Translations under genes and position numbers: made by a program
Virus record (IMG/VR): IMGVR_UViG_3300044712_001463
DNA length: 64,000 nt
From: a virus
Lineage: Duplodnaviria > Heunggongvirae > Uroviricota > Caudoviricetes
Direction: 5' to 3' (one strand)
The notes under the pieces: model-generated
Told to the model about the DNA's origin: nothing
Databases searched by the model: none
The model's input: the letters and a program-made list of their open reading frames with translations, nothing else
Shown here: piece by piece, positions 28,647-54,932 of the stretch
How the letters are laid out: each line of letters opens with the position of its first letter
Numbering within the stretch: the stretch's first letter is position 1

Positions 28647-28666
28647 CCTACTTAAATATAAGTAGA
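28647..28666. repeat. inter-cassette palindrome CCTACTTA-AATA-TAAGTAGa (imperfect right arm)
   Basis: Member of 14-copy family. Confidence 0.7.
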
Positions 28667-28691
28667 ATGCGGATAGCCTAGGCTAGGTGTC

Positions 28692-28719
28692 TTGACATGT
28701 GTCCTAGGGCGAGTATAAT
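28692..28719 (+). promoter_or_regulatory. promoter (TTGACAtgt variant)
   Basis: -35/-10 consensus. Confidence 0.6.
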
Positions 28720-28889
28720 CAGGGTATGAATCAACCACTTCTCAGGAGGCTCTCATGGCGACTTTTAGGAAAGTTCATAAGAAGGGGACTTGGCGATAAA
28801 AGGTGTTTATTTATTACTCCTTTTTTGATATAATTTGATCCAGGAGGTAGTTCTCCATTTCGGAGGACGGATCAAAAAGGGGCAATCAA

Positions 28890-29141
28890 ATGAGAAACCT
28901 ATATCGCTGGGTTCTAGAAAAGGAGATAAAGAGGATAGGCTTGCATGAGGGCTCGGTCTGCATTGTTCCTTTGGGCAAGGATGTCTATCTAGTTGGGGAC
29001 GGCAACAGATTCATTGAAGCCAAGGGGCATAAGATTCTTAGAATCCTTAAGAAGGTGCCTAATAAGGCTGGATACGATTTTCTGTGGCAGTCATTGAAGC
29101 CACTGCGGAAGCCAAAGAAAGTAGCTGACAAAACAAGATAA
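28890..29141 (+). CDS. hypothetical small basic protein (first GC-rich cassette)
   Basis: Promoter 28692; terminator downstream. Confidence 0.5.
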   Translation: MRNLYRWVLEKEIKRIGLHEGSVCIVPLGKDVYLVGDGNRFIEAKGHKILRILKKVPNKAGYDFLWQSLKPLRKPKKVADKTR

Positions 29142-29152
29142 TTGAGTATAAT

Positions 29153-29192
29153 AAGGGGTGAGGCTATTCGGCTTTCACCCCTTCTTATTTTA
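29153..29192 (+). terminator. rho-independent terminator
   Basis: aaggggtgaggc...gctttcaccccttcttatttt. Confidence 0.6.
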
Positions 29193-29203
29193 GGAGTACA
29201 TAT

Positions 29204-29512
29204 ATGGGAACCGCAACTGAGACTTTGAGGAACATCATCTACAGGTGGAGGATCTCCCGGGATGAGGCTGATGCCATCAACCTGGTAGACAAGGGCGACG
29301 AGTTTGGGGCTCCTCAGACCACCTACATTCTGATGACCGACGAAGAGAATGGCGCTGCTGTTTGGATCGGAACTGAGAGGGGCGAGATCAGACGCTTCCT
29401 CAGGTTCTATGATGACAAGACACGAGCCATACGTTGGGCTGTCCGCGAAGCCGAGAAGTATGTTAGAGAGCGGAACATCCCTGAAGCCTCACCAGATGCA
29501 ACGAACGACTAA
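29204..29512 (+). CDS. hypothetical protein
   Basis: RBS taggag; terminator downstream. Confidence 0.5.
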   Translation: MGTATETLRNIIYRWRISRDEADAINLVDKGDEFGAPQTTYILMTDEENGAAVWIGTERGEIRRFLRFYDDKTRAIRWAVREAEKYVRERNIPEASPDATND

Positions 29513-29537
29513 GATTCACACAGGGAATTAGGAATTA

Positions 29538-29573
29538 AAGAGCCGCTCTCTTTACGGGAGTGGCTCTTTTTTC
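29538..29573 (+). terminator. rho-independent terminator
   Basis: agagccgctctc...gagtggctctttttt. Confidence 0.6.
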
Positions 29574-29602
29574 TTGACAAGATGGGTAGGCTTATGCATA
29601 AT
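29574..29602 (+). promoter_or_regulatory. cassette promoter (-10 CATAAT)
   Basis: ctTGACAaga...tgCATAATg. Confidence 0.6.
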
Positions 29603-29621
29603 GTAGGCAAGGAGGTGTGAT

Positions 29622-29846
29622 ATGAGACGCAAGCGTTGTCCTGTATGTGGAGACCTTCCCGAGTATTGTTGCAGTGGAGATAAGATCGGTTTCTATGGTC
29701 ACTTCTTGGAGTGCCCTAGACATAGGTGTAGGCTCAGGACCCAGTATTATGATCATCCAGACAAAGCATTGCAAGCCTGGAACGAACGACTCGCACTCTG
29801 TTATGCAGGAAAGTTAGCTGACCTGAAGCCTAAGAGGAAGTCATGA
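29622..29846 (+). CDS. Cys-rich zinc-finger-like protein (CPVCG...CPRHRC)
   Basis: Promoter 29574, RBS aaggagg; ATGA coupled to tilS. Confidence 0.55.
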   Translation: MRRKRCPVCGDLPEYCCSGDKIGFYGHFLECPRHRCRLRTQYYDHPDKALQAWNERLALCYAGKLADLKPKRKS

Positions 29847-30475
29847 TCCGTTTTGAAAAGCGACTAGTGGATAAGAGCAAGCATGTGCACGTAGCGTGCT
29901 CAGGTGGAGTTGACTCCATGGCAGTGTGTGACTTCCTGAAGAGGGGTGGCTTCAATGTCCGCCCCGTCTTCTTCAACCATGGCACTGAGACGAGTCGTGC
30001 GGCGGAGATCTTCCTGGAGAACTATTTCACTGTAGGCTTCACCAAAGGCAAGTTGTATGGCGAGAAGCCTAAGGATAAGTCCTGGGAGGAATACTGGCGC
30101 GATGAGCGCTATAAGTTCTTCAACAGCCTAGGCTTGGAGACAATTGTCACTGCGCATCACCTAGATGACTGTGTCGAATCTTACGTCTTCAGTGCACTGC
30201 ATGGGAATGCCAAACTTCCCATGGTTCACCGTAGGCTCGGGCGCAGTATCGTCGTCCGCCCCTTCATGATGACCTCGAAGAGCGACCTAGTCGCCTGGGC
30301 TAAGCAGCATAATGTGCCCTGGATGGAAGATGCTAGCAACTTCGATGTCTCAGTGGGAACCCGGAACTACGTGCGGCATGCGTTGATGCCTGGCATCCTT
30401 CGAGTCAACCCTGGTATTTCCAAGGTGGTGGCTAAGAAGGTTAGAGAATTATACTTGACAAGTTTGGCGAAGTGA
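29843..30475 (+). CDS. tilS: tRNA(Ile)-lysidine synthetase TilS-like (N-terminal catalytic domain only, 210 aa)
   Basis: PP-loop ACSGGVDSMAV; FNHGT; TAHHLDDCVESYVFSALHG; RPFMM..K.DLVAWAK.H..PWMEDASN. Confidence 0.75.
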   Translation: MIRFEKRLVDKSKHVHVACSGGVDSMAVCDFLKRGGFNVRPVFFNHGTETSRAAEIFLENYFTVGFTKGKLYGEKPKDKSWEEYWRDERYKFFNSLGLETIVTAHHLDDCVESYVFSALHGNAKLPMVHRRLGRSIVVRPFMMTSKSDLVAWAKQHNVPWMEDASNFDVSVGTRNYVRHALMPGILRVNPGISKVVAKKVRELYLTSLAK

Positions 30476-30482
30476 GTATAAT
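30455..30482 (+). promoter_or_regulatory. cassette promoter driving tRNA(CAT)
   Basis: Overlaps tilS 3' end. Confidence 0.7.
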
Positions 30483-30493
30483 AGTAAGTGTTC

Positions 30494-30570
30494 GGGAACC
30501 TAGCTCAATTGGTTAGAGCAAGCGACTCATAATCGCTAGGTTCAGGGTTCAAGTCCCTGGGTTCCCACCA
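30494..30570 (+). tRNA. tRNA with CAT anticodon (Met elongator or Ile2/lysidine substrate)
   Basis: Cloverleaf, acceptor GGGAACC/GGTTCCC, loop CTCATAA, CCA encoded; directly downstream of tilS and promoter 30455. Confidence 0.8.
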
Positions 30571-30595
30571 CCTTTTCTTCTTCTAGGAGTCCGCA

Positions 30596-30739
30596 ATGCG
30601 CAAGTATTCTGCAAACAAGGGTCGGGAAGCCGCACTGAAGGCGTGGAAGACCATCCGCCGCAAGAAGGCTGCTGAAGCCAAGAAGTGGCGTGAGGCTGGG
30701 CTCAAGGCATGGAAGACCCGCAAGCGCAACGGCAACTAA
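30596..30739 (+). CDS. small basic protein (47 aa) with AALKAWKT / AGLKAWKT internal repeat
   Basis: RBS taggagt; not in ORF track (<60 aa); terminator follows. Confidence 0.45.
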   Translation: MRKYSANKGREAALKAWKTIRRKKAAEAKKWREAGLKAWKTRKRNGN

Positions 30740-30758
30740 AGAAGGCAAATCAAGGCAG

Positions 30759-30797
30759 AAAAGACCAGGGGCTAGCAACCTCTGGTCTTTTTGTTTG
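30759..30797 (+). terminator. rho-independent terminator
   Basis: aagaccagg...cctctggtctttttgtttg. Confidence 0.65.
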
Positions 30798-30800
30798 GGC

Positions 30801-30828
30801 TTGACAAGTGGTCTGGGAAGTGTATAAT
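30801..30828 (+). promoter_or_regulatory. cassette promoter
   Basis: consensus. Confidence 0.7.
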
Positions 30829-30856
30829 AGAGCCATACCTACTTTAGGAGGAAGTC

Positions 30857-31063
30857 ATGGACAACAAGATGAATAAGTTGCTTGAAAGGGTCAAGAAGGA
30901 ACTGAAGGAAGAGAAGGTGAAATACGCTGACAGGACCAAGCAACGCGAAGAGGACCCTGAGTTGGACTGCGACCACGAATTCATGGACTCCTACATCGCT
31001 CAAGAGGGCTACATCGTCGCCCTCGAAGAGATGATCAAGTGGATTCGCTACTACGGGAGGTAG
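30857..31063 (+). CDS. hypothetical protein
   Basis: Promoter 30801; RBS taggagg. Confidence 0.5.
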   Translation: MDNKMNKLLERVKKELKEEKVKYADRTKQREEDPELDCDHEFMDSYIAQEGYIVALEEMIKWIRYYGR

Positions 31064-31065
31064 TC

Positions 31066-31266
31066 ATGGCTGGTAAATACGGCAACTATACCTTCACCAT
31101 TACCATCGGAGCATATGGCAATGGACCTGACGACGCCTTCAACAGCGCCGTCCAGATGCTCTGCGAGGACCCTGGAGCCACCCCTGAGGACTACGAGTTT
31201 GAGGAAGATGAAGAGAGTGACGAGGACGACGAGGAGACCGAAGACGGGGAGGACGACCATGACTAA
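31066..31266 (+). CDS. small protein with poly-acidic C-terminus
   Basis: Start at ATG 31066 (ggagg upstream). Confidence 0.5.
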   Translation: MAGKYGNYTFTITIGAYGNGPDDAFNSAVQMLCEDPGATPEDYEFEEDEESDEDDEETEDGEDDHD

Positions 31267-32007: not shown

Positions 32008-32010
32008 CCC

Positions 32011-33436: not shown

Positions 33437-33511
33437 GCTCTTGTAGGCTAATGGATAAACCTGGGGGCTCCGAACCTCCGATTCCAAGTTCGATTCTTGG
33501 CAAGAGCACCA
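33437..33511 (+). tRNA. tRNA-Arg (anticodon CCG), somewhat non-canonical D-arm
   Basis: Acceptor GCTCTTG/CAAGAGC, T-arm CCAAG-TTCGATT-CTTGG, CCA. Confidence 0.6.
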
Positions 33512-33519
33512 AATAAAGC

Positions 33520-33547
33520 TTGACAAGTTCCTGAAAGTAAGTATAAT
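33520..33547 (+). promoter_or_regulatory. cassette promoter
   Basis: consensus. Confidence 0.7.
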
Positions 33548-33615
33548 GAAGACAAAGGGTAAGGCTTTCCCCTTCTAACGAAAGCCAACAAAGAACATCT
33601 CTCTACGAGGCAGTC

Positions 33616-33852
33616 ATGTCGAACGAGACCCCCCGCAAGGCAGGTCGTCCCGCTGAGTGGACGGAGACCGAGGTCAACGCGGTTCTCACGCTCAGCACCG
33701 ATCGCAACATCTCCTGCAAGAAGGCTTGCGCGATGGCGCACAAGTCCTACCCCTCCTTCGTCTCCGCTGCGCATCGGCTGAACATCGCCCTCCCCAAGCG
33801 CGGTCGGCGTCCGGTGGTCAAGGCTGAGAAGACCCCCGAGGTCGCAGCCTGA
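33616..33852 (+). CDS. small putative DNA-binding protein, paralog of 40785
   Basis: Shared GRP...RNISC(K/Q)KACAM.HKSY...SAAHR...LP.RGRR with 40785..41027. Confidence 0.55.
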   Translation: MSNETPRKAGRPAEWTETEVNAVLTLSTDRNISCKKACAMAHKSYPSFVSAAHRLNIALPKRGRRPVVKAEKTPEVAA

Positions 33853-33882
33853 AGATCCAACACAACTGAATATAGACAAGTT

Positions 33883-33920
33883 CAAGCCCTTGGAGAAATC
33901 CGAGGGCTTTCTTGTTTTTG
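33883..33920 (+). terminator. rho-independent terminator (duplicate of 44802)
   Basis: aagcccttggagaaatccgagggctttcttgtttttg. Confidence 0.6.
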
Positions 33921-33974: not shown

Positions 33975-33998
33975 AACCTACTTAAATATAAGTAGGTT
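33975..33998. repeat. inter-cassette palindrome AACCTACTTA-AATA-TAAGTAGGTT
   Basis: 10 bp perfect arms. Confidence 0.8.
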
Positions 33999-34040: not shown

Positions 34041-34068
34041 CTGACAAGCACAAGAATCTGCGTATAAT
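34041..34068 (+). promoter_or_regulatory. degenerate cassette promoter (CTGACA -35)
   Basis: gctgacaagc-16-TATAATA. Confidence 0.45.
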
Positions 34069-36782: not shown

Positions 36783-36986
36783 GTTGGGAGTAGACCAGAT
36801 AGGATGTCCGAGACCGGGCACCTGAGCGCGAATGCTGGCTACCGTGCGCTACATTCTGAAAGCGCCACATCTTCGAGTCCTCGTAGGGAAACGGTCCAAC
36901 CCTGTTAAGAGCAGGTATCGAAAAATGCGGAAGCCCTCCGTTCCCTTCGGGGCGATAATAGAGGAAACCACTACGAGAGATAGGGA

Positions 36987-37016
36987 GAGGAGCCATTAGA
37001 GGCTCCTCTTCTTTGT
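36987..37016 (+). terminator. rho-independent terminator
   Basis: agaggagccattagaggctcctcttctttg. Confidence 0.6.
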
Positions 37017-37018
37017 AC

Positions 37019-37046
37019 TTGACAAGTTAGCGAGTCCGTGCATAAT
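37019..37046 (+). promoter_or_regulatory. cassette promoter (-10 CATAAT) driving ORF-less RNA
   Basis: acTTGACAagt...tgCATAATg. Confidence 0.6.
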
Positions 37047-37290
37047 GGAGTTGTAAGCACACAGGCTCCCTCGGGCTCAACTAGGCGAATCGCTGAGGGC
37101 ATTGAAGGGAGCCATTCGATACTGAGGCTCGTCATGAGCATAATTCGGAAAGCCAAAGGAGTCAAAGTCAAGGTGCGGTCTGGCGGACGCCCTTTACTTA
37201 TCTCCAAGTAAAGTCTTCGAGGGGCTACCTTCGGAGTGGTGCGCGAGGCGCTAGAGCCCTGGGAAATACTCCTGGGGCTCTATGCTTTTG
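37047..37290 (+). ncRNA. candidate small structured RNA (promoter + terminator unit with no ORF)
   Basis: Promoter 37019, terminator 37253-37290, no +-strand ORF >=60 aa, multiple UUCG-loop hairpins. Confidence 0.4.
37253..37290 (+). terminator. rho-independent terminator of ORF-less RNA unit
   Basis: agagccctgggaaatactcctggggctctatgcttttg. Confidence 0.6.
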
Positions 37291-38027: not shown

Positions 38028-38069
38028 AAAGAGAGCCCTGGGCGTAATAGCCTGGGGCTCTTTTGTTTG
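38028..38069 (+). terminator. rho-independent terminator
   Basis: agagccctgggcgtaatagcctggggctcttttgtttg. Confidence 0.65.
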
Positions 38070-38113: not shown

Positions 38114-38133
38114 ACTACTTATATATAAGTAGG
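38114..38133. repeat. inter-cassette palindrome aCTACTTA-TATA-TAAGTAGG
   Basis: Flank agaactactt identical to copy at 53464. Confidence 0.75.
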
Positions 38134-38166: not shown

Positions 38167-38194
38167 TTGACAAGCCAGGCTATTTGTGTATAAT
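38167..38194 (+). promoter_or_regulatory. cassette promoter
   Basis: consensus. Confidence 0.7.
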
Positions 38195-38990: not shown

Positions 38991-39027
38991 AAGAAGACCA
39001 TCTCCTAACCGAGGTGGTCTTCTTACG
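38991..39027 (+). terminator. terminator-like hairpin (weak U-tract)
   Basis: aagaagaccatctcctaaccgaggtggtcttctt. Confidence 0.4.
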
Positions 39028-39057: not shown

Positions 39058-39083
39058 AAACCTACTTAAATATAAGTAGGTTT
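39058..39083. repeat. inter-cassette palindrome AAACCTACTTA-AATA-TAAGTAGGTTT
   Basis: 11 bp perfect arms. Confidence 0.8.
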
Positions 39084-39135: not shown

Positions 39136-39163
39136 TTGACAAGTTCCAGAGAATATGTATAAT
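39136..39163 (+). promoter_or_regulatory. cassette promoter
   Basis: consensus. Confidence 0.7.
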
Positions 39164-40179: not shown

Positions 40180-40689
40180 ATGGGCTGGATCAAGATGGGT
40201 GAGTTTGAGGTTGCTTCCAAGCGAGTCATGATCAGTGACCCCTGCTATGAGTCAGGGCAATCCCTCACGGCACTCAACGGAACCTACGATGCCTACATCT
40301 TCAAGAACAAGGAAGGTCGGGTCATGAAGTTGAAGGCGGTCAGGAAGGGATCCAAGGTCGTGGGTGGAATGCAGGAGGCTAGGATTGCAGGCGTGGACTC
40401 AGGTCAGATGAGCATCACGGACTACCTGCAATACCGCGAGAGCAACCCCAATGACCTGCGCCTGGTCACTTCGCTCTGGCAGGACACGCTCAAGGATCCT
40501 GATGGTGGTCAGTTCTACGCCGTGTGTTGCTCCCTGACCTGTGGCGATGACAACGGTCAGACCCAGCAGGGAGGCGTCTTCGCTAGTGGGTGCGTTTCGC
40601 AGTCAGGCTATGGGGATGGGGGATATCCCATTTTCTATGGTGAGGATGAGAACGGCGATTCGGTGGCTTTTGAGGTCAGGTTCAAATAA
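40180..40689 (+). CDS. hypothetical Gly/Cys-rich protein
   Basis: Start ATG 40180 with caggag SD. Confidence 0.45.
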   Translation: MGWIKMGEFEVASKRVMISDPCYESGQSLTALNGTYDAYIFKNKEGRVMKLKAVRKGSKVVGGMQEARIAGVDSGQMSITDYLQYRESNPNDLRLVTSLWQDTLKDPDGGQFYAVCCSLTCGDDNGQTQQGGVFASGCVSQSGYGDGGYPIFYGEDENGDSVAFEVRFK

Positions 40690-40692
40690 AGC

Positions 40693-40720
40693 TTGACAAG
40701 TTTCCAAAAGTAAGTATAAT
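40693..40720 (+). promoter_or_regulatory. cassette promoter
   Basis: consensus. Confidence 0.7.
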
Positions 40721-40784
40721 CATACTTACAAGAGGCAAGGGTTCCCCTCTCCACAAGTGAATCCACTCTCTCTAGGAGGTCGTC

Positions 40785-41027
40785 ATGTCCGAGAACACCC
40801 CGCAGGTCGAGCAGGCTCCCCGCAAGGTCGGTCGTCCCGTCACCATGACCAAGGAGGAGGTCGAGAAGATCCTCTCCCTGGGCGCCGAGCGCAACATCTC
40901 GTGTCAGAAGGCGTGCGCCATGGTCCACAAGAGCTACAGCACCTTCATCAGCGCGGCTCACCGCTACGGCGTGGCTCTCCCCGCCCGTGGTCGCCGGTCG
41001 AGCAAGAAGGATGAGGTCGCCGCCTAA
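40785..41027 (+). CDS. small putative DNA-binding protein, paralog of 33616
   Basis: Promoter 40693; shared motifs with 33616. Confidence 0.55.
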   Translation: MSENTPQVEQAPRKVGRPVTMTKEEVEKILSLGAERNISCQKACAMVHKSYSTFISAAHRYGVALPARGRRSSKKDEVAA

Positions 41028-41054
41028 CAACCGGTCACAGCCGAGAAACACCCA

Positions 41055-41090
41055 AAGGGAGGCAGAGAAATCTGCCTCTCTTTATTTTAT
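41055..41090 (+). terminator. rho-independent terminator
   Basis: gggaggcagagaaatctgcctctctttatttt. Confidence 0.6.
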
Positions 41091-42956: not shown

Positions 42957-42997
42957 GAGAAGACCCAGGTGCAACTAGCCTGGGTCTTTTTGTTTGT
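42957..42997 (+). terminator. rho-independent terminator
   Basis: agacccaggtgcaactagcctgggtctttttgtttg. Confidence 0.65.
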
Positions 42998-43036: not shown

Positions 43037-43056
43037 CCTACTTAAAAATAAGTAGG
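43037..43056. repeat. inter-cassette palindrome CCTACTTA-AAAA-TAAGTAGG
   Basis: Lies inside a shadow ORF; partial extra half-site upstream (acctactcg). Confidence 0.75.
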
Positions 43057-43090: not shown

Positions 43091-43118
43091 TTGACAAGTA
43101 TCCAGGTTTATATATAAT
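43091..43118 (+). promoter_or_regulatory. cassette promoter
   Basis: consensus. Confidence 0.7.
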
Positions 43119-43137: not shown

Positions 43138-43659
43138 ATGAGTCTCTTTGATGCCATAGCCAAACATACCAAGAAAGAGGTTGATTGGAATAAGGCTGGC
43201 GAGTTTTTCGAACTCGATGGCGTTATCTTTTCAATCAATCATATTTCTGACATTGGCAGTCACAACCAATCTGCGTATGTAGGCGTTCATTCCAATCCCC
43301 TTAAGAAAAAGGTCATGGTTGGGAGGTTCAGGTCTGGAGATTTTTCAGGACAACATGATTTGACTAGGATTACGGCAGGCGAAGGTAATTGCCATATGTA
43401 TAAAAGCGCATCGGATGGACCCAACGCCATTCAGGTTGATGGGAAAGTCTTTGTTATTGGCAGAGACATGTTCACTTCCTGCACTAAAAGGTTCCCTCTG
43501 TTTGGGCTCTTCGGCAAGACAATGAGGATCAAGGGAGGCGGCTACGGCGACTTTAAGGTTCAGACTGCCTGGTTGATGCCTGATGGCACTTGGCTGTGTT
43601 CAGCGGGACAGCATCCTAGGCGCTCACATAAAGTCAGCGATCTTGAAGTTATAGATTGA
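43138..43659 (+). CDS. MSLFDAIAKH-leader protein
   Basis: Promoter 43091; SD ggagga; start at ATG 43138. Confidence 0.55.
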   Translation: MSLFDAIAKHTKKEVDWNKAGEFFELDGVIFSINHISDIGSHNQSAYVGVHSNPLKKKVMVGRFRSGDFSGQHDLTRITAGEGNCHMYKSASDGPNAIQVDGKVFVIGRDMFTSCTKRFPLFGLFGKTMRIKGGGYGDFKVQTAWLMPDGTWLCSAGQHPRRSHKVSDLEVID

Positions 43660-44801: not shown

Positions 44802-44835
44802 GAAGCCCTCGGAGAAATCCGGGGGCTTTCTGTTG
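44802..44835 (+). terminator. rho-independent terminator (duplicate of 33883)
   Basis: gaagccctcggagaaatccgggggctttctgttg. Confidence 0.55.
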
Positions 44836-44880: not shown

Positions 44881-44900
44881 TCTACTTATATATAAGTAGG
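44881..44900. repeat. inter-cassette palindrome tCTACTTA-TATA-TAAGTAGG
   Basis: family member. Confidence 0.75.
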
Positions 44901-44944: not shown

Positions 44945-44973
44945 CTTTAAAAACCCCTATATTTTGGTATAAT
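44945..44973 (+). promoter_or_regulatory. weaker promoter (TATAAT -10 at 44968, poor -35)
   Basis: ggTATAATAaaatag. Confidence 0.35.
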
Positions 44974-45004: not shown

Positions 45005-45544
45005 ATGTTTAGAGATATCGCATTCTTCACGAGCATGTCATCGCACGATAAGAACATCCAGAAGGTAATCGATGACAGCTTCATAAACTACCTTACGAAG
45101 AGAGTTGTTGATGTGAAGAACTCGAAGGAGATCTTCCTCATCTTGTCCATGATTGAGATGCAGAACAAATACACGCGTGCGATGGAGTTGCTCAGGTCTA
45201 TCGAACTCGCAGTGCCGATGCTAGCAACTGTTCTCATCATGGCAGCAGGTGGCAAAAGTCTTCCGTTCTGGTTGTTCTTGCCTCTAGTGCTTGCCATCTT
45301 CTGGTCGTTCGATTTCTTTATCATGCGCCCAATCAAAATCCAGGTCATCCAGGGCTACCAGTTCAGGTTGATGTGCGATCTCACGCAGCAAGAAGACGCA
45401 GTCATCTGCCGGGAAGACTCAACTGATGACAGCAAGATTATAGTCAATAAAGACCCTGAGAAATCAGTGTATCTCCAGGAGTTCATTTCCAATGGTGAGA
45501 AGCTCCTCGAACAGTTCCGGCAAGACCTACTTAAAGGTAAGTAG
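45005..45544 (+). CDS. membrane protein (2 TM)
   Basis: RBS aaaggagcc; weaker promoter (-10 at 44968). Confidence 0.5.
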   Translation: MFRDIAFFTSMSSHDKNIQKVIDDSFINYLTKRVVDVKNSKEIFLILSMIEMQNKYTRAMELLRSIELAVPMLATVLIMAAGGKSLPFWLFLPLVLAIFWSFDFFIMRPIKIQVIQGYQFRLMCDLTQQEDAVICREDSTDDSKIIVNKDPEKSVYLQEFISNGEKLLEQFRQDLLKGK

Positions 45545-45653
45545 GCAGTCAATCTGCATTCACGGGCGCACACTGAGCAATGTCTGCAAAGCTTGCTTTG
45601 ACTCAGTGTGGCGTTCGGGGGAAGTTGCTGGATTCAAATATGATTTCACCAAG

Positions 45654-45830
45654 ATGGGCATCCCCAAAACATTCATGTGGGGTATGCGGTTGGTGTACGA
45701 AGAGAGTTCGGGTATAACCTGGACGATTAATACTGAGCGTTTGGATTCAGCCCCGGCGGATGTCGGGACTAATCATTTAGATGTCATCCTGGAAATCATT
45801 AAACTCTACTTGACAAGTTTGCGAGAATAG
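45654..45830 (+). CDS. possible small ORF (start unclear; GTG 45606 alternative)
   Basis: No SD; low support. Confidence 0.25.
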   Translation: MGIPKTFMWGMRLVYEESSGITWTINTERLDSAPADVGTNHLDVILEIIKLYLTSLRE

Positions 45831-47806: not shown

Positions 47807-47846
47807 AAAGGAGCCACCTCTAACCCAGGTGGCTCTTCTGTTTTCC
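47807..47846 (+). terminator. rho-independent terminator
   Basis: ggagccacctctaacccaggtggctcttctgttttcc. Confidence 0.6.
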
Positions 47847-47877: not shown

Positions 47878-47897
47878 CCTACTTACTTTTAAGTAGG
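47878..47897. repeat. inter-cassette palindrome CCTACTTA-CTTT-TAAGTAGG
   Basis: family member. Confidence 0.75.
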
Positions 47898-47942: not shown

Positions 47943-47970
47943 TTGACAAGTCGCTCGCTTTGGATATAAT
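47943..47970 (+). promoter_or_regulatory. cassette promoter
   Basis: consensus. Confidence 0.7.
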
Positions 47971-48656: not shown

Positions 48657-48697
48657 AGAAAGACCTCTCTTAACCGAGAGGTCTTTTTGTTTGTCTT
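48657..48697 (+). terminator. rho-independent terminator
   Basis: agacctctcttaaccgagaggtctttttgtttg. Confidence 0.65.
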
Positions 48698-48753: not shown

Positions 48754-48776
48754 AACCTACTTATTTTTAAGTAGGT
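48754..48776. repeat. inter-cassette palindrome ACCTACTTA-TTTT-TAAGTAGGT
   Basis: family member. Confidence 0.8.
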
Positions 48777-48828: not shown

Positions 48829-48856
48829 TTGACAGGTTTTCATATCTATGTATAAT
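48829..48856 (+). promoter_or_regulatory. cassette promoter (TTGACAggt)
   Basis: consensus hexamers. Confidence 0.65.
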
Positions 48857-49769: not shown

Positions 49770-49810
49770 AACCAAGACCTTCCTAAATCGGGAAGGTCTT
49801 TTTCTTTCCC
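49770..49810 (+). terminator. rho-independent terminator
   Basis: agaccttcctaaatcgggaaggtctttttctttcc. Confidence 0.65.
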
Positions 49811-49847: not shown

Positions 49848-49872
49848 TGACCTACTTAAATATAAGTAGGTC
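49848..49872. repeat. inter-cassette palindrome GACCTACTTA-AATA-TAAGTAGGTC
   Basis: family member. Confidence 0.8.
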
Positions 49873-50038: not shown

Positions 50039-50353
50039 ATGTGGCACTACTCCATCAAGCAGTTCAACTACCAGACGGGGCAGTTCGAGTTTTACTCCCA
50101 CGGAGTCTCGACAGAGCACGAGGGGTGGGAGGTCGTCTTTGCCAATGCCGAGCAGTTCAGGTTGGTGGAGGCACCCCGGAAGTTCGGGCAGGTGCGACAC
50201 GGTATGCGTGCCACACTGACGGATAGGGCAACGCGGGAGGTAGTCTTTGTCGCACGGGTCTTTGAGGACGGAAACCCTGAGCAGCACGAACCCCTTCCTG
50301 GCGAGCCGCTCGAATACGAAGACCTCGCATCTCCCCTGGATTCTGAAGACTAG
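50039..50353 (+). CDS. hypothetical protein
   Basis: SD gaggtgag; no consensus promoter upstream. Confidence 0.45.
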   Translation: MWHYSIKQFNYQTGQFEFYSHGVSTEHEGWEVVFANAEQFRLVEAPRKFGQVRHGMRATLTDRATREVVFVARVFEDGNPEQHEPLPGEPLEYEDLASPLDSED

Positions 50354-50362: not shown

Positions 50363-50397
50363 AAAAGAAGCCCCTAGAAATAGGGGCTTTTCTTTTG
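50363..50397 (+). terminator. rho-independent terminator
   Basis: gaagcccctagaaataggggcttttcttttg. Confidence 0.65.
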
Positions 50398-50444: not shown

Positions 50445-50466
50445 ACCTACTTATATATAAGTAGGT
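50445..50466. repeat. inter-cassette palindrome ACCTACTTA-TATA-TAAGTAGGT
   Basis: family member. Confidence 0.8.
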
Positions 50467-50520: not shown

Positions 50521-50548
50521 TTGACAAGTTCTCATATTCATGTATAAT
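50521..50548 (+). promoter_or_regulatory. cassette promoter
   Basis: consensus. Confidence 0.7.
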
Positions 50549-51712: not shown

Positions 51713-51759
51713 TCATGGCACATATCCGACTTAGGTCAACCCGAAAAATGCGCTGAACT

Positions 51760-51800
51760 AAAAGAGGGCTCTCTTAACTGGGAGCCCTCTTCAGTTTTCC
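51760..51800 (+). terminator. rho-independent terminator
   Basis: agagggctctcttaactgggagccctcttcagttttcc. Confidence 0.6.
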
Positions 51801-51831
51801 GGTCATCTCCTCCCGGGGATCACCGGTAATA

Positions 51832-51854
51832 GACCTACTTACTTTTAAGTAGGT
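51832..51854. repeat. inter-cassette palindrome GACCTACTTA-CTTT-TAAGTAGGT
   Basis: family member. Confidence 0.8.
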
Positions 51855-51896
51855 ATAGCCTACCTAGCCAGGGAACCCGACCTGGTCATCTCGAGC

Positions 51897-51924
51897 TTGA
51901 CAAGTTCAAAGATTTCGGTATAAT
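51897..51924 (+). promoter_or_regulatory. cassette promoter
   Basis: consensus. Confidence 0.7.
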
Positions 51925-51944
51925 AGAATCAAGGAGATAGCCCA

Positions 51945-52352
51945 ATGCAAATCCACCAAACAATCGGCAAGGTGCGTAGCGCTCTAGAGATTTATGCTAG
52001 CCGCCATCATCTGCTCGGAGCAGACGAAAGTCTGACCTGCTGGTGTGCCATTGGGTCATCCGTTCTCAAGCGCATCCTGAAGGAAAAGCACAATCTCAAT
52101 CCCAAGTTTGTCCGAGGTGCGTGTCTCAATGGCAATCACTGCTGGATTGAATTAGAGGAATACGCGATTGATATAACCGCGTCGCAGTTCTTCAATCAGA
52201 AGGTAAAGATATTCAAGACCAAGAAATACAACAAGGATGAATACGACCCTATCGAAGTCCTAGAGAACGAATACAAACTTGATTGGGGAGACCAAGCACC
52301 CAAACCCAAGCACCTCAAGGCAGTAAAGGCAATCCTCAAAACCCTCTCTTAA
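51945..52352 (+). CDS. hypothetical protein
   Basis: Promoter 51897; SD aaggag. Confidence 0.5.
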   Translation: MQIHQTIGKVRSALEIYASRHHLLGADESLTCWCAIGSSVLKRILKEKHNLNPKFVRGACLNGNHCWIELEEYAIDITASQFFNQKVKIFKTKKYNKDEYDPIEVLENEYKLDWGDQAPKPKHLKAVKAILKTLS

Positions 52353-52375
52353 TCGGAGAGGGTTTTCTCTTTCCC
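52339..52375 (+). terminator. rho-independent terminator
   Basis: aaccctctcttaatcggagagggttttctctttcc. Confidence 0.65.
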
Positions 52376-52411
52376 GGCGATCTCTTCCGGTACGCGTGCA
52401 GCACTGCCAAA

Positions 52412-52433
52412 ACCTACTTATCTTTAAGTAGGT
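52412..52433. repeat. inter-cassette palindrome ACCTACTTA-TCTT-TAAGTAGGT
   Basis: family member. Confidence 0.8.
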
Positions 52434-52476
52434 GCCTGCCACCACCAGGATGTCCTCCCAGCGGGCGACTTTCTCC

Positions 52477-52504
52477 TTGACAAGTTCGCCTATTTATGTA
52501 TAAT
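52477..52504 (+). promoter_or_regulatory. cassette promoter (unit near-identical to 53528)
   Basis: consensus. Confidence 0.7.
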
Positions 52505-52534
52505 ATAATCATACCCAAACAAAGAGGTGCTCAA

Positions 52535-52756
52535 ATGAATCCGTGGGTTTCCTCAATCATCTTCCTCTCCTTCATCCTCATCTGCGCCAAGGACAAGATT
52601 CTTGCTCTGTTCTGTATCCTGCTCTTCATCGCAGAGAACACCTACTTCGGGTGGAACCTGCATCCTTCCTGCACAGGGGAAGAGGTCTGCGACTTGTTCG
52701 TTCTCATCGTTGGCATCTTTGCCCTCTTCCACGAACCCAAGACAAAGGAGAATTAA
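52535..52756 (+). CDS. small membrane protein
   Basis: Promoter 52477; start ATG 52535. Confidence 0.5.
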   Translation: MNPWVSSIIFLSFILICAKDKILALFCILLFIAENTYFGWNLHPSCTGEEVCDLFVLIVGIFALFHEPKTKEN

Positions 52757-52758
52757 CC

Positions 52759-53169
52759 ATGTCCATCCTCAAGCAAGCGCTCGACCTGTCAGGCGTCATC
52801 GACAAGAACGAAACAGCGAAGCAGGTGAATGAAGTCATCGACACCCTCGACCTTCACAGCAAGGAAGGAACCGCTGTCGGCAAGAACCTCGGTGTCCTGC
52901 TCTCGGCAACCAAGTTCGCTCATCACCTCGGAACCTTCAAGGCACTCTTCATCGTCATCCTCAACCTCGCTCTCTACAACAACATCCCTAATCACCTGCT
53001 CGCCATCTCTCTCGCCGTCCTCATCGACTTCCTCTTTCTCAGGTCTATGAAGTCCGTCCAAGAACGGTTCATGGTGGTCTGCATGGCATGGACTACCGAC
53101 TTCACCCTCGGCAGGTTCGACATGGAAGGCAATTCAGTCAAGACCTACACGAAGTTGATTCGGAAGTAG
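52759..53169 (+). CDS. membrane protein
   Basis: SD aaggag; start ATG 52759. Confidence 0.5.
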   Translation: MSILKQALDLSGVIDKNETAKQVNEVIDTLDLHSKEGTAVGKNLGVLLSATKFAHHLGTFKALFIVILNLALYNNIPNHLLAISLAVLIDFLFLRSMKSVQERFMVVCMAWTTDFTLGRFDMEGNSVKTYTKLIRK

Positions 53170-53382
53170 GACCATCGCAGTTCAGGTGTCCCTTCACAGG
53201 GTAAGACGACAAAAGGGTTCGCGTTTCATGGTAACGTCGAAGGATGTGGGTTCCTATTAGGAATTGCTAGGGACCAAGGTTAGAACCCCATTACCTACTT
53301 CACATCCGCAAGGGTAAGATAATCCCTGCATCTGACAAGCGTAATCTCATTCCCGTTCTGAGAAAACCAAGCAACGGGCAAT

Positions 53383-53420
53383 AATGAAACCCTCTCCTGC
53401 AAGAGAGGGTTTTTTGTTTG
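53383..53420 (+). terminator. rho-independent terminator
   Basis: aaaccctctcctgcaagagagggttttttgtttg. Confidence 0.7.
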
Positions 53421-53463
53421 TCAGCAGTCCCCACTGGTACCGGACATCTCCGACGGCAATAGA

Positions 53464-53483
53464 ACTACTTATATATAAGTAGG
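53464..53483. repeat. inter-cassette palindrome aCTACTTA-TATA-TAAGTAGG
   Basis: family member. Confidence 0.75.
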
Positions 53484-53527
53484 TAGGACATCCCAAGAAG
53501 TTCTCCTCCCAGGGGACTACTTCGCCC

Positions 53528-53555
53528 TTGACAAGTATTCGAATTTATGTATAAT
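53528..53555 (+). promoter_or_regulatory. cassette promoter
   Basis: consensus. Confidence 0.7.
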
Positions 53556-53585
53556 ATAATCATACCCACCAAACAGGAGACTTCC

Positions 53586-53825
53586 ATGACCAAGAACATC
53601 TTCAATGCAATCGTCATCACCTACATGCTCATCGCCATCGCTGTCTCCTGCTACTGCAATATCATCAAGGGGTTCCGAATCTTCGACCTGCCCATGCAGT
53701 TTCGGGAAGAGGTCTACACCGCTTCAGGTCTGCTGTGGAACCACATCACCACCGATTTCGCCCTGCTCTGCCTGATTCCCACCCTGCTTGTTGGGGTCTA
53801 CATCATCTTCTTTGTGAAGGACTAG
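53586..53825 (+). CDS. small membrane protein
   Basis: Promoter 53528 with leader near-identical to 52477 unit; start ATG 53586. Confidence 0.5.
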   Translation: MTKNIFNAIVITYMLIAIAVSCYCNIIKGFRIFDLPMQFREEVYTASGLLWNHITTDFALLCLIPTLLVGVYIIFFVKD

Positions 53826-53827
53826 TC

Positions 53828-54046
53828 ATGTTGACCTTCAAGGAAAACGTCAAGAAGTTCGGCAAACCCATTCAGGGCAAGGTCTATGACTGCAAACTCC
53901 AAAGTTTCACCTCGGGCAAGATTGTCGAGGAAAAGTTAGTCGCGGTCTTCAAGGATGACTGTGCGTGGAGAACGGCAGATGACTTCTCGGAAATCAACGA
54001 GATGAATTGGAACGTCATCGAATGGCATCTTGCCAAGGAGAAGTAG
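53828..54046 (+). CDS. hypothetical protein
   Basis: SD gaagga. Confidence 0.4.
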   Translation: MLTFKENVKKFGKPIQGKVYDCKLQSFTSGKIVEEKLVAVFKDDCAWRTADDFSEINEMNWNVIEWHLAKEK

Positions 54047-54048
54047 TC

Positions 54049-54294
54049 ATGAGCAATCCTCTGCGACAGGACAGACTTCCCAAGGACAAGAAGACCAAGC
54101 GGTGCCCTGCTTACATCCGTGAGAAGTATGGACTTGACAGGAGGGGCAAGGGGAAGAACGGGGAACTCTCCCTGCTTCAGGCATCCCACATCCTCGCTCA
54201 CCGCCCTGAACCTACCCTGCGTGAACACATCGAAACCTTCATCGCCAAGGTTTTCGGATATGAAGGCAACCTTCCTTGGAATGAGAGGATGTAA
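54049..54294 (+). CDS. hypothetical basic protein
   Basis: SD aaggag. Confidence 0.45.
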   Translation: MSNPLRQDRLPKDKKTKRCPAYIREKYGLDRRGKGKNGELSLLQASHILAHRPEPTLREHIETFIAKVFGYEGNLPWNERM

Positions 54295-54437
54295 TGACTA
54301 CCTTCGTTCTTATCCTCATAGTGTTTGCTTCCCTTACCTTCCTCTTTGGCATGATTGGTCTTGCCTTGTGGGGAATGGGGTTCATCAAGGGAACCATGCC
54401 CCTAACCAAAGCAAACACTGTTGGTCTTCGCCTTTAA
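54294..54437 (+). CDS. small TM peptide (47 aa)
   Basis: TAATG overlap; hydrophobic. Confidence 0.3.
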   Translation: MTTFVLILIVFASLTFLFGMIGLALWGMGFIKGTMPLTKANTVGLRL

Positions 54438-54440
54438 TCC

Positions 54441-54468
54441 TTGACAAGTCTTTAAGAATAGATATAAT
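54441..54468 (+). promoter_or_regulatory. cassette promoter
   Basis: consensus. Confidence 0.7.
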
Positions 54469-54498
54469 AAAGATACACCCCAACAAAGGAAGTCAGTC

Positions 54499-54744
54499 AT
54501 GAAACTCACGTGGACAGTCTCTAAGGTTCCTGGGTGCTCCTCCAAACACTACATCTCCAATCCGCACCCCATGGTCAAGTTCGTCATCACCACTGCCTGT
54601 GGTTCATCCAAGGAAGGAAGGGTCTACATGTTCGGGGGTTGCATTCCCCACATCGGGTTCGGCAGTCTAGACAACTGCAAGAAAGCATGCGAAGATTTCT
54701 ACAACGGTCTCCTCGCTCTCTCTTCCCCTCCCTCAGGAGTCTAA
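54499..54744 (+). CDS. Cys-containing hypothetical protein
   Basis: Promoter 54441 (near-identical to 39732 unit); SD aaggaag. Confidence 0.5.
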   Translation: MKLTWTVSKVPGCSSKHYISNPHPMVKFVITTACGSSKEGRVYMFGGCIPHIGFGSLDNCKKACEDFYNGLLALSSPPSGV

Positions 54745-54815
54745 CATGTCCGTCGTCCGAGTCACTTCCCATCGCAAGATGCACTAGAATCCTGGAAAAC
54801 CCTTGTAACTCAAGC

Positions 54816-54846
54816 ACAAAGCCCCAGAAATGGGGCTTTTTTGCGT
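54816..54846 (+). terminator. rho-independent terminator
   Basis: aaagccccagaaatggggcttttttgcg. Confidence 0.65.
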
Positions 54847-54912
54847 GCCATAGACTGCCATAAGGCGCCTTATGACCTGTACCGGCTAGAAATGCGGGCA
54901 AAATACTTCATT

Positions 54913-54932
54913 TCTACTTAAATATAAGTAGT
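54913..54932. repeat. inter-cassette palindrome tCTACTTA-AATA-TAAGTAGt (last copy, at GC-rich/AT-rich boundary)
   Basis: family member. Confidence 0.7.

Follow-up and report, generated by a model that had tools for sequence, protein, structure and literature searches.

A short palindrome with the core CTACTTA-N4-TAAGTAG occurs 15 times in the 64,000-nucleotide stretch of viral DNA analysed here (the window), nearly always in the spacer between an intrinsic terminator and the next promoter, and its distances from that promoter repeat with a period of ~10 bp. We give roughly an even chance to the explanation that this element, A-CCTACTTA-WWTW-TAAGTAGG-T, is an operator, that is, a double-stranded site for a sequence-specific dimeric protein. 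The core of the observation made in the original prediction is confirmed, the observation as a whole is partly confirmed and its interpretation as a whole is partly supported; the phasing with the promoter is a new result that goes beyond it.

The family is far above chance. The exact form with 8-bp arms, CCTACTTA-N4-TAAGTAGG, was found 10 times against 0.00 expected (shuffled sequences gave none), and allowing up to two mismatches gave 15 matches against 0.03 expected, one more than the 14 copies first reported. No other palindrome family is repeated in the 64-kb window, where we saw neither orphan CTACTTA half-sites anywhere nor degenerate copies elsewhere. All 15 copies are confined to 28.6 to 54.9 kb, within a GC-rich (~50%) early-gene block (positions 28503 to 55000, + strand) of a phage-like contig with 33% GC. 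This block holds ~60 small genes, all on the + strand, together with 8 tRNAs, 33 consensus sigma70-type promoters and ~19 intrinsic terminators, and the units flanked by palindromes comprise 1 to 15 genes each, nearly all of them ORFans.

Although only 25.8% of the block is non-genic DNA, 14 of the copies lie there (binomial P = 7e-8). A strong intrinsic terminator stands ahead of each of these 14 (35 to 73 nt from stem end to palindrome), and a perfect sigma70-type promoter, TTGACAAGT-N13-TATAAT, follows 11 at a gap of 25 to 55 nt. The first copy (28647-28666; CCTACTTAAATATAAGTAGA, one outer mismatch) is located 35 nt downstream of the terminator at 28581-28611 and 25 nt upstream of the promoter at 28692-28719. 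Copy 2 (33977-33996; exact, 10-bp arms) lies 60 nt after a terminator ending at 33916 and 44 nt before the promoter at 34041-34068; copy 3 (38114-38133; ACTACTTATATATAAGTAGG) lies 49 nt after the terminator at 38029-38064 and 33 nt before the promoter at 38167-38194; copy 4 (39061-39080; exact, 11-bp arms) lies 40 nt after a terminator ending at 39020 and 55 nt before the promoter at 39136-39163; and copy 5 (43037-43056; exact) lies 44 nt after a terminator ending at 42992 and 34 nt before the promoter at 43091-43118. Copy 6 (44881-44900; TCTACTTATATATAAGTAGG) is 51 nt from a terminator ending at 44829 and is followed, 45 nt downstream, only by a weaker promoter (TTTAAA-16-TATAAT, 44946-44973), the gap being in phase with the others. 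For the exact copies 8 (47878-47897) and 9 (48756-48775), the terminators at 47809-47837 and 48657-48688 end 40 and 67 nt upstream, and the promoters at 47943-47970 and 48829-48856 begin 45 and 53 nt downstream. Copy 10 (49851-49870; exact) follows the terminator at 49774-49800 by 50 nt, and no consensus promoter was found between it and the next gene start at 50039. Copy 11 (50446-50465; exact, a full 22-bp palindrome) has a terminator ending at 50390, 55 nt upstream, and a promoter at 50521-50548, 55 nt downstream. The corresponding values are 39 nt (terminator end 51794) and 43 nt (promoter 51897-51924) for copy 12 (51834-51853; exact), 46 nt (terminator end 52366) and 44 nt (promoter 52477-52504) for copy 13 (52413-52432; exact), and 50 nt (terminator 53386-53413) and 44 nt (promoter 53528-53555) for copy 14 (53464-53483; ACTACTTATATATAAGTAGG). 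The last copy (54913-54932; TCTACTTAAATATAAGTAGT, two outer mismatches), at the right edge of the block, lies 73 nt after a terminator ending at 54839, and no consensus promoter was found after it.

Copy 7 (45526-45545), which has exact arms and an AAGG centre found in no other copy, is alone in lacking both a terminator and a nearby promoter. It lies within the overlap of two gene calls (45005-45544 and 45492-45830), and the TAG in its right arm is the stop codon of the former. It had been stated that the element always lies 20 to 60 bp after a terminator and 30 to 80 bp before a promoter, and never inside a real gene except at 43037. The arrangement stands for 14 copies with respect to the terminator and for 12 with respect to the promoter (11 perfect, one weaker; copies 45526, 49851 and 54913 are without one), at distances that differ from both stated ranges. 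The named exception was the wrong one: since the true gene begins at 43138, after the promoter, the reading frame covering copy 43037 is spurious and this copy is ordinary, while copy 45526 is the one within gene calls. The ACTT/AAGT half-site said to be common to the element and the promoter palindrome is a mere 4-mer and carries no weight.

The palindrome does not accompany every terminator or promoter. Five terminators (ending at 29569, 30790, ~37012, 37282 and 41083) abut a promoter without it, and ~21 internal promoters of the block also lack it. Where present, it keeps at least 25 bp from the -35 hexamer and at least 35 nt from the terminator stem, outside the expected polymerase footprints. 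Its presence only where a terminator precedes a long (100 to 150 bp) spacer, its absence from internal promoters and abutting junctions, its roughly mid-spacer position clear of both footprints and an A/T-rich centre that favours cruciform extrusion would all suit a passive insulator that has no communication with the promoter: either a protein roadblock or a cruciform (gyrase-type) topological barrier, stopping read-through polymerases or absorbing supercoiling between tandem, highly transcribed units. Stoperators are dispersed intergenic sites bound by a repressor, and they provide a phage precedent. (Phage stoperator sites are mentioned in PMC12266134.) We nevertheless consider an insulator rather unlikely. 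A roadblock or sink needs no register with the -35 hexamer, yet the register is strong, and there is none with the terminator; a structural cruciform would accept compensatory changes in the arms, of which none was seen; and the single-stranded DNA hairpins are weak (-6.5 to -9.5 kcal/mol).

This register is evident from the gaps between the palindrome end and the -35 hexamer, which are 25, 33, 34, 43, 44, 44, 44, 45, 53, 55 and 55 bp (45 bp for the weak promoter) and fall into classes of 25, 33-34, 43-45 and 53-55 bp, a period of ~10 bp. The Rayleigh R is 0.88 at a period of 10.0 to 10.25, the best in a scan from 5 to 20, with P about 2.5e-5 against uniform and jitter nulls alike, a value that comes from 11 to 12 distances and from a pattern spotted before its test. 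The distances from terminator to palindrome (35 to 73 nt), taken from the same spacers as a control, are aperiodic (R about 0.23 to 0.28, p about 0.4). A MAFFT alignment of the 14 intergenic regions that hold the copies other than 45526 has a mean column identity of 46%, with no invariant positions apart from those of the palindrome core and the promoter; the spacers are thus non-homologous, so the gap-length classes are not inherited copies.

The element is conserved in its sequence, beyond what structure alone would require. The 7+7 core is invariant in all copies (15 x 14 positions, no substitution), perfect arms span 7 to 11 bp and the whole site 20 to 22 bp. The original description gave arms of 8 to 11 bp around a 4-nt AT-rich loop. 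Eleven of the 15 copies have nothing but A/T in the centre, and A/T accounts for 55 of all 60 centre bases, in surroundings of ~50% GC. Positions A10/T11 are dyad-symmetric, and a TATA centre makes four copies uninterrupted palindromes. The outer pair carries six substitutions in five copies, all non-compensatory (four copies lose the pairing and one gives G-T), and no covarying pairs were seen in the arms of the 15 copies. The terminator hairpins of the same spacers all differ in stem sequence.

These data bear on two readings that place the signal in RNA or in a hairpin. In the first, a sequence-specific endoribonuclease would recognise the 8 to 11 bp hairpin as a signal for processing or stability between cistrons, comparable to T7 RNase III sites and Cas6-type hairpin recognition, which presupposes antitermination or natural read-through past the terminators. 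Folding is well above shuffled controls on either strand (RNA hairpin -9 to -14 kcal/mol, z -2.6 to -5.9), the position is intercistronic with all genes on one strand, and copy 45526 would be transcribed. However, 14 of 15 copies follow strong terminators and precede the next start, in the least transcribed DNA of the block; there are no covarying pairs and the outer-pair changes break pairing; no Rfam match was found; the stem is below RNase III length, being too short for that enzyme; and the phasing with the -35 hexamer is left unexplained. We therefore regard an RNA element as improbable. In the second reading, a phage-encoded RNA polymerase or sigma-like factor would use the hairpin as a promoter, or a phage polymerase would use it as a terminator, which would provide the early units with another way of being expressed or with a stop later in infection. 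The element is invariant in sequence and placed just upstream of each unit, and the N4 virion RNA polymerase is known to use hairpin promoters. Yet a perfect palindrome is directionless although the genes all point the same way, its centre (the loop) varies whereas the loops of hairpin promoters are defined, the stem is not followed by a T-run, and the window yielded no gene for an RNA polymerase or sigma factor; we think this very unlikely.

The original prediction likened the placement to integron attC and other cassette-boundary recombination sites. Identical 20-bp repeats might serve as crossover points for excising, inserting or swapping terminator-bounded units, whether site-specifically as at integron attC, or by mini-circle exchange of the PeSL type known from T4-type phages, short homology or cruciform cutting. 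Identical copies of 20 to 22 bp do flank units of 1 to 15 mostly ORFan genes, copy 45526 within gene calls could be a scar, and PeSLs, conserved terminator/promoter composites in hyperplastic regions of T4-type phages, flank indels between sister phages (PMC4122927). In contrast to integron attC, the palindrome is perfect and strand-symmetric at 20 to 22 bp, has no bulged bases and folds identically on both strands, so that the proposed top- and bottom-strand comparison gave no strand specificity. The suggested search for a cognate recombinase or HNH protein gave no integrase, recombinase or transposase (Pfam for the 128 window proteins; PHROGs and NCBIfam for the 59 island proteins); the sole nuclease found in the window is an HNH reading frame at 2004-2399, far from the block. 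Each unit has its own promoters and terminators, and the one recognisable internal duplication (a gene with its promoter, at 33.5 kb and 40.7 kb) begins ~10 nt upstream of the -35 hexamer, away from the palindromes. These features speak against an attC-like cassette-boundary site, and that comparison is not supported. As for homology, the 28-bp consensus promoters, being both longer and more frequent as repeats than the palindrome, would be a better substrate, and a crossover site has no reason to hold helical phase with a promoter. Recombination in any of these forms seems doubtful to us.

Least probable, and by our reckoning only a slim prospect, is a selfish REP- or MITE-like repeat, functionless for the phage and accumulated in the only dispensable DNA. 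The palindrome is short, extragenic and multi-copy, one copy (45526) sits in a coding context, and its arms contain GTAG/CTAC, which we take to be reminiscent of REP heads. Against this, the window yielded neither a RAYT nor an IS200-type transposase, the flanks are unalignable and beyond 22 bp show neither conserved ends of an element nor target duplications, and random insertion into spacers would neither yield 10-bp phasing nor spare all short terminator-promoter junctions and the other non-coding DNA of the window.

The operator explanation accommodates the invariant half-sites, the A/T-rich centre and the helical-phase lock to the promoter, with which the protein-binding site or insulator that the original prediction also allowed agrees. 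From this pattern we infer protein binding, a dimeric state, a phage-encoded binder and an effect on transcription, including its sign. Most likely, the two monomers would recognise one invariant 7-bp half-site each; as 11 bp, one helical turn, separate the centres of the half-sites, both monomers would lie on one face of the DNA, and the A/T-rich centre may be a deformable spacer free of protein contact. The site stands at the head of terminator-bounded early transcription units, upstream of the -35 hexamer by a whole number of helical turns; its centres fall near -70, -78, -88 and -98 (assuming a start 7 nt after the -10 hexamer), so that the bound protein would always face promoter-bound RNA polymerase from the same side. 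Contact with the polymerase, e.g. with its alpha C-terminal domain, or bending of the upstream DNA onto the enzyme might then co-regulate the palindrome-headed units. However, the consensus promoters need no activator, and at copies 45526, 49851 and 54913 there is no consensus promoter for the protein to act on. As the promoters are already perfect, timed repression (shut-off) or fine modulation would be likelier than simple activation, and as only 11 to 12 of the 33 block promoters carry the site, it cannot be a general switch for the block.

The binder would probably be encoded by the phage itself. None of 185,579 species genomes carries the motif in multiple copies, so there is no sign of a host regulon. 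No relatives were found in any collection searched. The same protein searches (Pfam, 128 window proteins; PHROGs and NCBIfam, 59 island proteins) turned up no member of an HTH, ParB or repressor family. A candidate DNA-binding protein, offered only as a lead, is a 78-aa protein (33616-33852, + strand) with a paralog at 40785-41027; its model is a bundle of three helices flanked by basic, GRP-rich tails and has no significant fold match.

The proposed operator has known precedents. The early/late promoter region of phi29 contains inverted repeats to which protein p4 binds; two of the p4 sites overlap -35 elements, and the protein represses early promoters while activating late ones (PMC3100819). 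Likewise, KorB of RK2 acts at palindromic OB operators present in multiple copies (PMC11790492).

The exact palindrome, CCTACTTA-N4-TAAGTAGG, occurs ten times in the window and in none of 100 shuffles. When up to two mismatches were allowed, 15 copies were found against 0.03 expected, one more than the 14 of the original prediction. The mismatches are confined to the outermost pair, and the core, CTACTTA-N4-TAAGTAG, shows no variation across the 15 copies. This is the sole repeated palindrome family of the window: neither an orphan CTACTTA half-site nor another loop length was found in the 64 kb, and the only degenerate match with four mismatches allowed lies in coding DNA at 2042. The arms are perfect over 7-11 bp, and a position table of the 15 copies gave the consensus A-CCTACTTA-(A/T)ATA-TAAGTAGG-T, with ACCTACTTAAATATAAGTAGGT as the 22-bp duplex form of the site. 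The centre is variable (A/T in 55 of 60 positions), and the flanks carry information at one base per side and none further. A longer element was considered and rejected, as the alignment and the flank statistics revealed neither conservation nor dyad symmetry beyond A(-1) and T(+1); therefore, the site has no MITE-like body.

The 210 core positions contain zero substitutions, and the six outer-pair substitutions, present in five copies, abolish pairing in four of them and leave a G-T pair in one. The terminators located in the same spacers have kept their hairpins while their stem sequences are all different, whereas the palindrome does the opposite. Its hairpin is of modest stability (-9 to -14 kcal/mol for RNA, -6.5 to -9.5 kcal/mol for DNA). 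The palindrome does not look like a terminator: the stem is A/T-rich (A-T in 5 of 8 pairs), the 3' flank carries no conserved T-run beyond one T, and the terminator scan called none of the palindromes. The 7-bp half-sites, invariant in 15/15 copies, have their centres 11 bp apart. An operator would be expected to display such dyad symmetry, with conserved half-sites separated by about one turn of the helix and a centre that tolerates change.

Placement was assessed against the genes called on the source contig (Logan SRR26046407_41771) and, for 28-35 kb, against our own calls. Fourteen of the 15 copies are non-genic, although non-genic DNA makes up just 25.8% of the block (P = 7e-8), and an intrinsic terminator (-13.7 to -26.4 kcal/mol) precedes each of these 14, with 35-73 nt between the end of its stem and the palindrome. 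A perfect consensus promoter is present 25-55 nt downstream of 11 copies. The palindrome had been described as sitting only between a terminator and the next promoter and never inside a real gene. The terminator side of this description held for 14 copies and the consensus-promoter side for 11, but copy 44881 precedes a weaker TTTAAA-16-TATAAT promoter (45 nt downstream), and copies 49851 and 54913, the latter at the right edge of the block, precede no recognisable promoter. The remaining copy, 45526, had been missed as an exception: it has neither a terminator nor a promoter, carries the unique centre AAGG, and lies in the overlap of the called genes 45005-45544 and 45492-45830.

The first of these two genes stops at the TAG of the right arm of copy 45526, its overlap with the next gene being 53 nt, and the second gene crosses the palindrome in the sole frame left open. 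A simple insertion of this copy into a gene was not supported, since excising 20 bp does not fuse the overlapping ORFs. The overlap within 45005-45830 could reflect a wrongly called start, a junction that has decayed or a site of recoding.

One third of the block promoters bear a palindrome. Five terminators that abut a promoter have none, and the same is true of all of the approximately 21 internal promoters that directly follow a stop codon. Because such abutting pairs and internal promoters lack it, the palindrome marks junctions consisting of a terminator, a long spacer (100-150 bp) and a promoter, and it sits at about mid-spacer. The sites are found in the least transcribed DNA of the block, past one terminator and ahead of the following start site.

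Measured from the palindrome end to the first -35 base, the distances are 25, 33, 34, 43, 44, 44, 44, 45, 53, 55 and 55 bp, i.e., four classes approximately 10 bp apart (25, 33-34, 43-45 and 53-55). In a scan of periods from 5 to 20 bp, the Rayleigh R was highest, 0.88, at 10.0-10.25 bp, and only about 2.5e-5 of the trials reached this R in null simulations with either uniform gaps or the observed gaps jittered by +/-5 bp (periods 10-11 scanned). R stays at 0.88 when the weak promoter of copy 44881 (45 bp) is added. The terminator-to-palindrome gaps (35-73 nt), used as a control, showed no periodicity (R 0.22-0.28, p about 0.4). When 14 intergenic regions (copy 45526 excluded) were aligned with MAFFT, the invariant positions were those of the palindrome core and the promoter only; the mean column identity is 46% and gaps are many. 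As the spacers are not mutual copies, the length classes are maintained on unrelated sequence. The simplest reading is that the palindrome has been selected to stay on one helix face relative to the promoter, and such a fixed helical phase is again a property expected of operators. If the start is assumed to be 7 nt after the -10 hexamer, the site centres are near -69.5, -78, -88.5 and -98.5. Class I CRP sites are centred at about -61.5, -71.5, -82.5 and -92.5, a ladder that ours resembles in having the same 10-11 bp steps.

Several other explanations would account for where the palindromes lie: a passive roadblock or topological insulator, an RNA processing hairpin, a signal for a phage polymerase, or a selfish repeat. 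However, none of these covers the invariant sequence and the phasing together. Regarding a selfish repeat of the REP/BIME type, no Y1 (IS200/IS605-type) transposase family was detected among the window proteins. REP/BIME elements are imperfect palindromes of transcribed 3' regions, often in clusters, whereas the copies here are single, perfect and downstream of terminators.

The original prediction favored a cassette-boundary recombination site resembling attC. True attC sites are 57-141 bp long, with R''/L''-L'/R' cores and extrahelical bases, and it is the folded bottom strand that recombines; they need IntI, a tyrosine recombinase encoded beside the array together with attI and Pc, and flank promoterless cassettes that share one promoter. 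The palindrome shares with them an inverted repeat at gene-unit boundaries, but the other attC features do not hold. It is a perfect palindrome of 20-22 bp, and when both strands were folded, top and bottom gave the same bulge-free hairpin instead of a strand-specific structure. The units have their own consensus promoters and intrinsic terminators. The cognate recombinase that had been proposed for inspection was sought, and no integrase, recombinase or transposase was found among the window proteins; specifically, no IntI-type integrase was present among the 59 block proteins (Pfam, PHROGs, NCBIfam) and 69 other proteins (Pfam) of the 64-kb window, which is part of a contig of at least 94.9 kb. 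The attC-like reading is not supported.

A less likely possibility is that the identical 20-bp sites recombine through short homology, in the manner of the PeSLs (promoter-early stem-loops) of T4-type phages. The duplicated unit at 33500-33916 and 40673-41083 consists of a promoter, a 78/80-aa gene and a terminator loop, and its proteins are 61% identical, with GRP-rich tails and a modelled three-helix core. The duplication begins approximately 10 nt upstream of the -35 element, and this only traceable duplication is not bounded by palindromes. Moreover, a crossover site needs no helical register with a promoter.

Best supported is the prediction that the palindrome is a double-stranded protein-binding site, because the half-site centres are 11 bp apart, the centre is variable and A/T-rich, and the site is in phase with the promoter. 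The 434 and P22 repressors, which are dimeric helix-turn-helix proteins, likewise recognize half-sites with centres 11 bp apart and a variable A/T-rich centre. A dimeric protein, probably phage-encoded, would bind the site and, from a fixed face of the helix, could contact the promoter-bound RNA polymerase or wrap the upstream DNA onto it. The head promoters of the terminator-bounded units would thereby be co-regulated. As these promoters are already consensus, timed repression or modulation, of the kind exerted by phi29 p4, is favored as the probable effect. Weak points of the operator reading are that only a third of the block promoters bear the site and that three copies lack a consensus promoter on which a bound protein could act.

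As the protein searches yielded no binder and the site sequence is not known to match any operator, we do not assign the site to any named family. No HTH, ParB or recombinase family was found among the 59 block proteins (Pfam, PHROGs, NCBIfam) or the 69 other window proteins (Pfam). A weak lead for the binder is a 78-aa protein with GRP-rich tails, together with its paralog, modelled as a three-helix bundle (pLDDT 72). This model gave no significant fold match (best Foldseek E-value, 2.8), and on the basis of this fold search the protein was rejected as evidence for the binder and kept as a lead.

The block that carries the palindromes is a sharp island of about 50% GC (28.5-55.0 kb), against 32-38% across most of the window, and it coincides with the zone of TTGACAAGT-N13-TATAAT consensus promoters. 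The + strand is the coding strand for every gene in the window. Eight tRNA genes and about 60 small genes, mostly ORFan, are present in the block together with about 19 strong intrinsic terminators and 33 sigma70-type promoters (at most one mismatch to the consensus), nearly all of which are TTGACAAGT-N13-TATAAT with the spacer fixed at 16 nt. Three further consensus promoters of this form are located at 954, 2403 and 3436, in a smaller patch of 39-45% GC (1-4 kb). The block promoters (28692-54468) fall into two sub-types. One, of the form ...TGTATAAT, is commonest at post-terminator unit heads (6 of the 11 palindrome-associated promoters, plus 30801 and 37293). The other, of the form ...TAGATATAAT, is almost entirely restricted to internal promoters after a stop codon (7/22), and the broader GATATAAT form is seen at 8/22 internal promoters vs 1/11 heads. 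At about 3832 and 55267, the long AT-rich operons begin with a weaker promoter type, TTTAAA-N16-TATAGT. Two promoters in the AT-rich region carry the motif TATAGTAG, whose likeness to the palindrome was examined and rejected, as both are simply weaker TTTAAA-N16-TATAGT promoters with no relation to the palindrome.

The few recognisable proteins of the window (MnmA, a TilS-like PP-loop protein, a radical SAM HxsC-like protein, a Lar-like anti-restriction protein, a Dam-like methylase, an HNH nuclease and an AAA ATPase) match the phage records only distantly by tblastn (36-43% identity). A tRNA gene with a CAU anticodon comes immediately after the gene for the TilS-like lysidine synthetase (29843-30570), mnmA lies beside a free-standing HNH endonuclease ORF (1009-2399), and the Dam-like D12 adenine methyltransferase is encoded at 6016-6825. 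Upstream of the block, 32 tandem paralogous genes (8615-28502) encode proteins of about 120-325 aa, most of them about 150 aa; nearly all start with MISYR(A/S)NLFESLNKQ and diverge afterwards, and their database matches were the phage's own proteins only. A family of four in the block (41158, 41987, 43138 and 43702) starts with MSLFDA(L/I)xK, an N-terminus that resembles the leader of the tandem paralogs. The shared leader with its L-F-E motif is reminiscent of the capsid-targeting or prohead-protease signals of T4 internal proteins.

Three ORF-free GC-rich stretches of about 215-235 nt (36783-37018, 37019-37282 and 53170-53385) are candidate small RNAs. One of them comes with a consensus promoter (37019) and a terminator (37252-37282) of its own, and none had an Rfam match at the gathering threshold. 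A 14-codon ORF (MATFRKVHKKGTWR) with a strong SD sequence, located at 28755-28799 after the first promoter of the block (28692), is possibly a leader peptide, as the next gene does not follow until about 90 nt later.

Restriction-site-like sequences are unevenly distributed. GGCC occurs once within 28600-54950, where about 99 are expected, and 32 times outside (34.5 expected). Since GGCC is nearly absent inside the block and normal outside it, this suggests, speculatively, a restriction pressure on the block only, as for a first-entering DNA segment. GTAC, ACGT and AGCT are depleted 3-8-fold throughout the window. The spacers within about 70 nt of the palindromes are about 52% GC and otherwise unconserved; they account for 8.9% of the block length, yet contain 45% of its CCGG, 65% of its GTAC and 8 of its 9 AGGCGCC sequences. 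Short palindromes of this kind, mainly CCGG, GGCGCC and GTAC, occur in the spacers at about 2-3.5 times the block coding density, only modestly above spacer shuffles, and were not used in our argument.

Relatives were sought in several ways. Two pieces of 8 kb had no megablast match among 50,697 phage records, and exact-motif scans returned single chance matches only, both in IMG/VR and, among the matches listed, in the metagenome collection. The 9-N4-9 form gave 16 single matches in the GTDB genomes. Two of these, from one MAG, are probably one locus at overlapping contig ends, because each is located at the end of its contig and the loop of one is the reverse complement of the other. No GTDB species genome contains the motif in multiple copies, which gives no indication of a host regulon. 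Three protein searches recovered the phage's own proteins only, protein-guided scans of IMG/VR with two paralog families recovered nothing, and contig look-ups returned only Logan contigs of run SRR26046407, all inside the window. As every one of these searches failed to find a relative, the genome is a database singleton.

Two unrelated metagenome contigs, L050 (405-640) and L098 (199-420), carry tandem units of about 215 nt upstream of a gene. In each unit, a promoter is followed by an RNA of about 100 nt and by a terminator; the terminator stem, (T)CCTACTTA-N4-TAAGTAGG(A), coincides with the palindrome by chance. These units look like small-RNA genes in repeated copies. Scanning IMG/VR for the promoter pattern revealed many unrelated phages with consensus promoters, none with the palindrome. 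One of them, the uncultured phage L219 (IMGVR_UViG_3300044846_001093), has 10 perfect consensus promoters in 15 kb (687-11219), mostly in a near-identical cassette of about 45 nt, GAGTACTTTTACTGTAC-TTGACAATTACC...TGGTATAAT-AGAG, that comes right after a stop codon; this array is PeSL-like but lacks the palindrome.

If one protein docks at these sites, the phage would possess a compact master control of about a dozen independent early (host-takeover-type) operons, in a lineage without sequenced relatives. The junction of terminator, phased operator and consensus promoter would be a natural template for insulated, co-regulated expression units. A more ambitious proposal, which we regard as unlikely, is: that a new phage architectural regulator docks at the sites; that each early unit thus consists of a terminator, a phased protein site and a consensus promoter; that this arrangement is a natural genome-wide insulator-plus-switch for the host-takeover block; and that the same sites may serve as exchange points, making them a protein-marked analogue of PeSLs. 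If the palindrome is merely the shared operator of an ordinary repressor, it represents tidy, unsurprising phage regulation. The repeat and its 10-bp ladder are clean, and a shared operator before early promoters is unlikely to astonish a specialist.

With respect to known systems, the block architecture resembles both the SPO1 host-takeover region and the PeSL-rich hyperplastic regions of T4-type phages (PMC6873191; PMC4122927). The SPO1 module is made up of many short operons of small early genes, equipped with strong host-type promoters and ribosome-binding sites (PMC6873191); the text consulted describes no palindrome-like element, whereas one is present here. Also unlike SPO1, our block is about 26 kb long, has 50% GC in a 33% GC genome, and carries tRNAs and tRNA-modification genes. 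PeSLs consist of a repeated intergenic stem-loop/terminator, a near-consensus sigma70 early promoter and an SD sequence, and they sit among small ORFan genes of plastic early (hyperplastic) regions (PMC4122927). The terminator-promoter-SD modules of the block agree with this description, and nothing was found to show that the phage is T4-like. However, the PeSL stem-loop is a terminator-like hairpin of variable sequence immediately upstream of the promoter, while the palindrome is a third element, sequence-invariant, distinct from the actual terminator and located 25-55 bp from the -35 element and in phase with it.

Stoperators are also many copies of one short site, but they are 13 bp long, asymmetric and orientation-dependent, and they block elongation in temperate phage. 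In cluster A mycobacteriophages (L5, D29), these repressor sites are dispersed in short intergenic regions (PMC12266134). Our sites, in contrast, are perfect palindromes that follow terminators and are promoter-phased. A precedent exists in RK2, where one element-encoded regulator, KorB, uses a dozen or so identical OB palindromes, mostly near promoters, to govern many operons (PMC11790492). As with KorB-OB and ParB-parS, many identical short palindromes are scattered over a mobile genome here. However, OB is 13 bp with a different sequence, and no ParB-family CTPase was matched among the proteins of the 64-kb window. KorB slides and acts from variable distances, so helical phasing would not be expected.

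Overall, the palindrome works most like the upstream operator of a global regulator. As in class-I-type operators and those of phi29 p4, it is dyad-symmetric, has half-sites one turn apart, lies upstream of the -35 element and is face-dependent. Protein p4 binds inverted repeats in the early/late promoter region, repressing the strong early promoters and activating the weak late one (PMC3100819). The p4 sites are CTTTTT-N15-AAAATG and are clustered in one control region, whereas here 15 identical sites are spread over 26 kb, most copies are paired with a terminator, and most of the promoters are perfect consensus.
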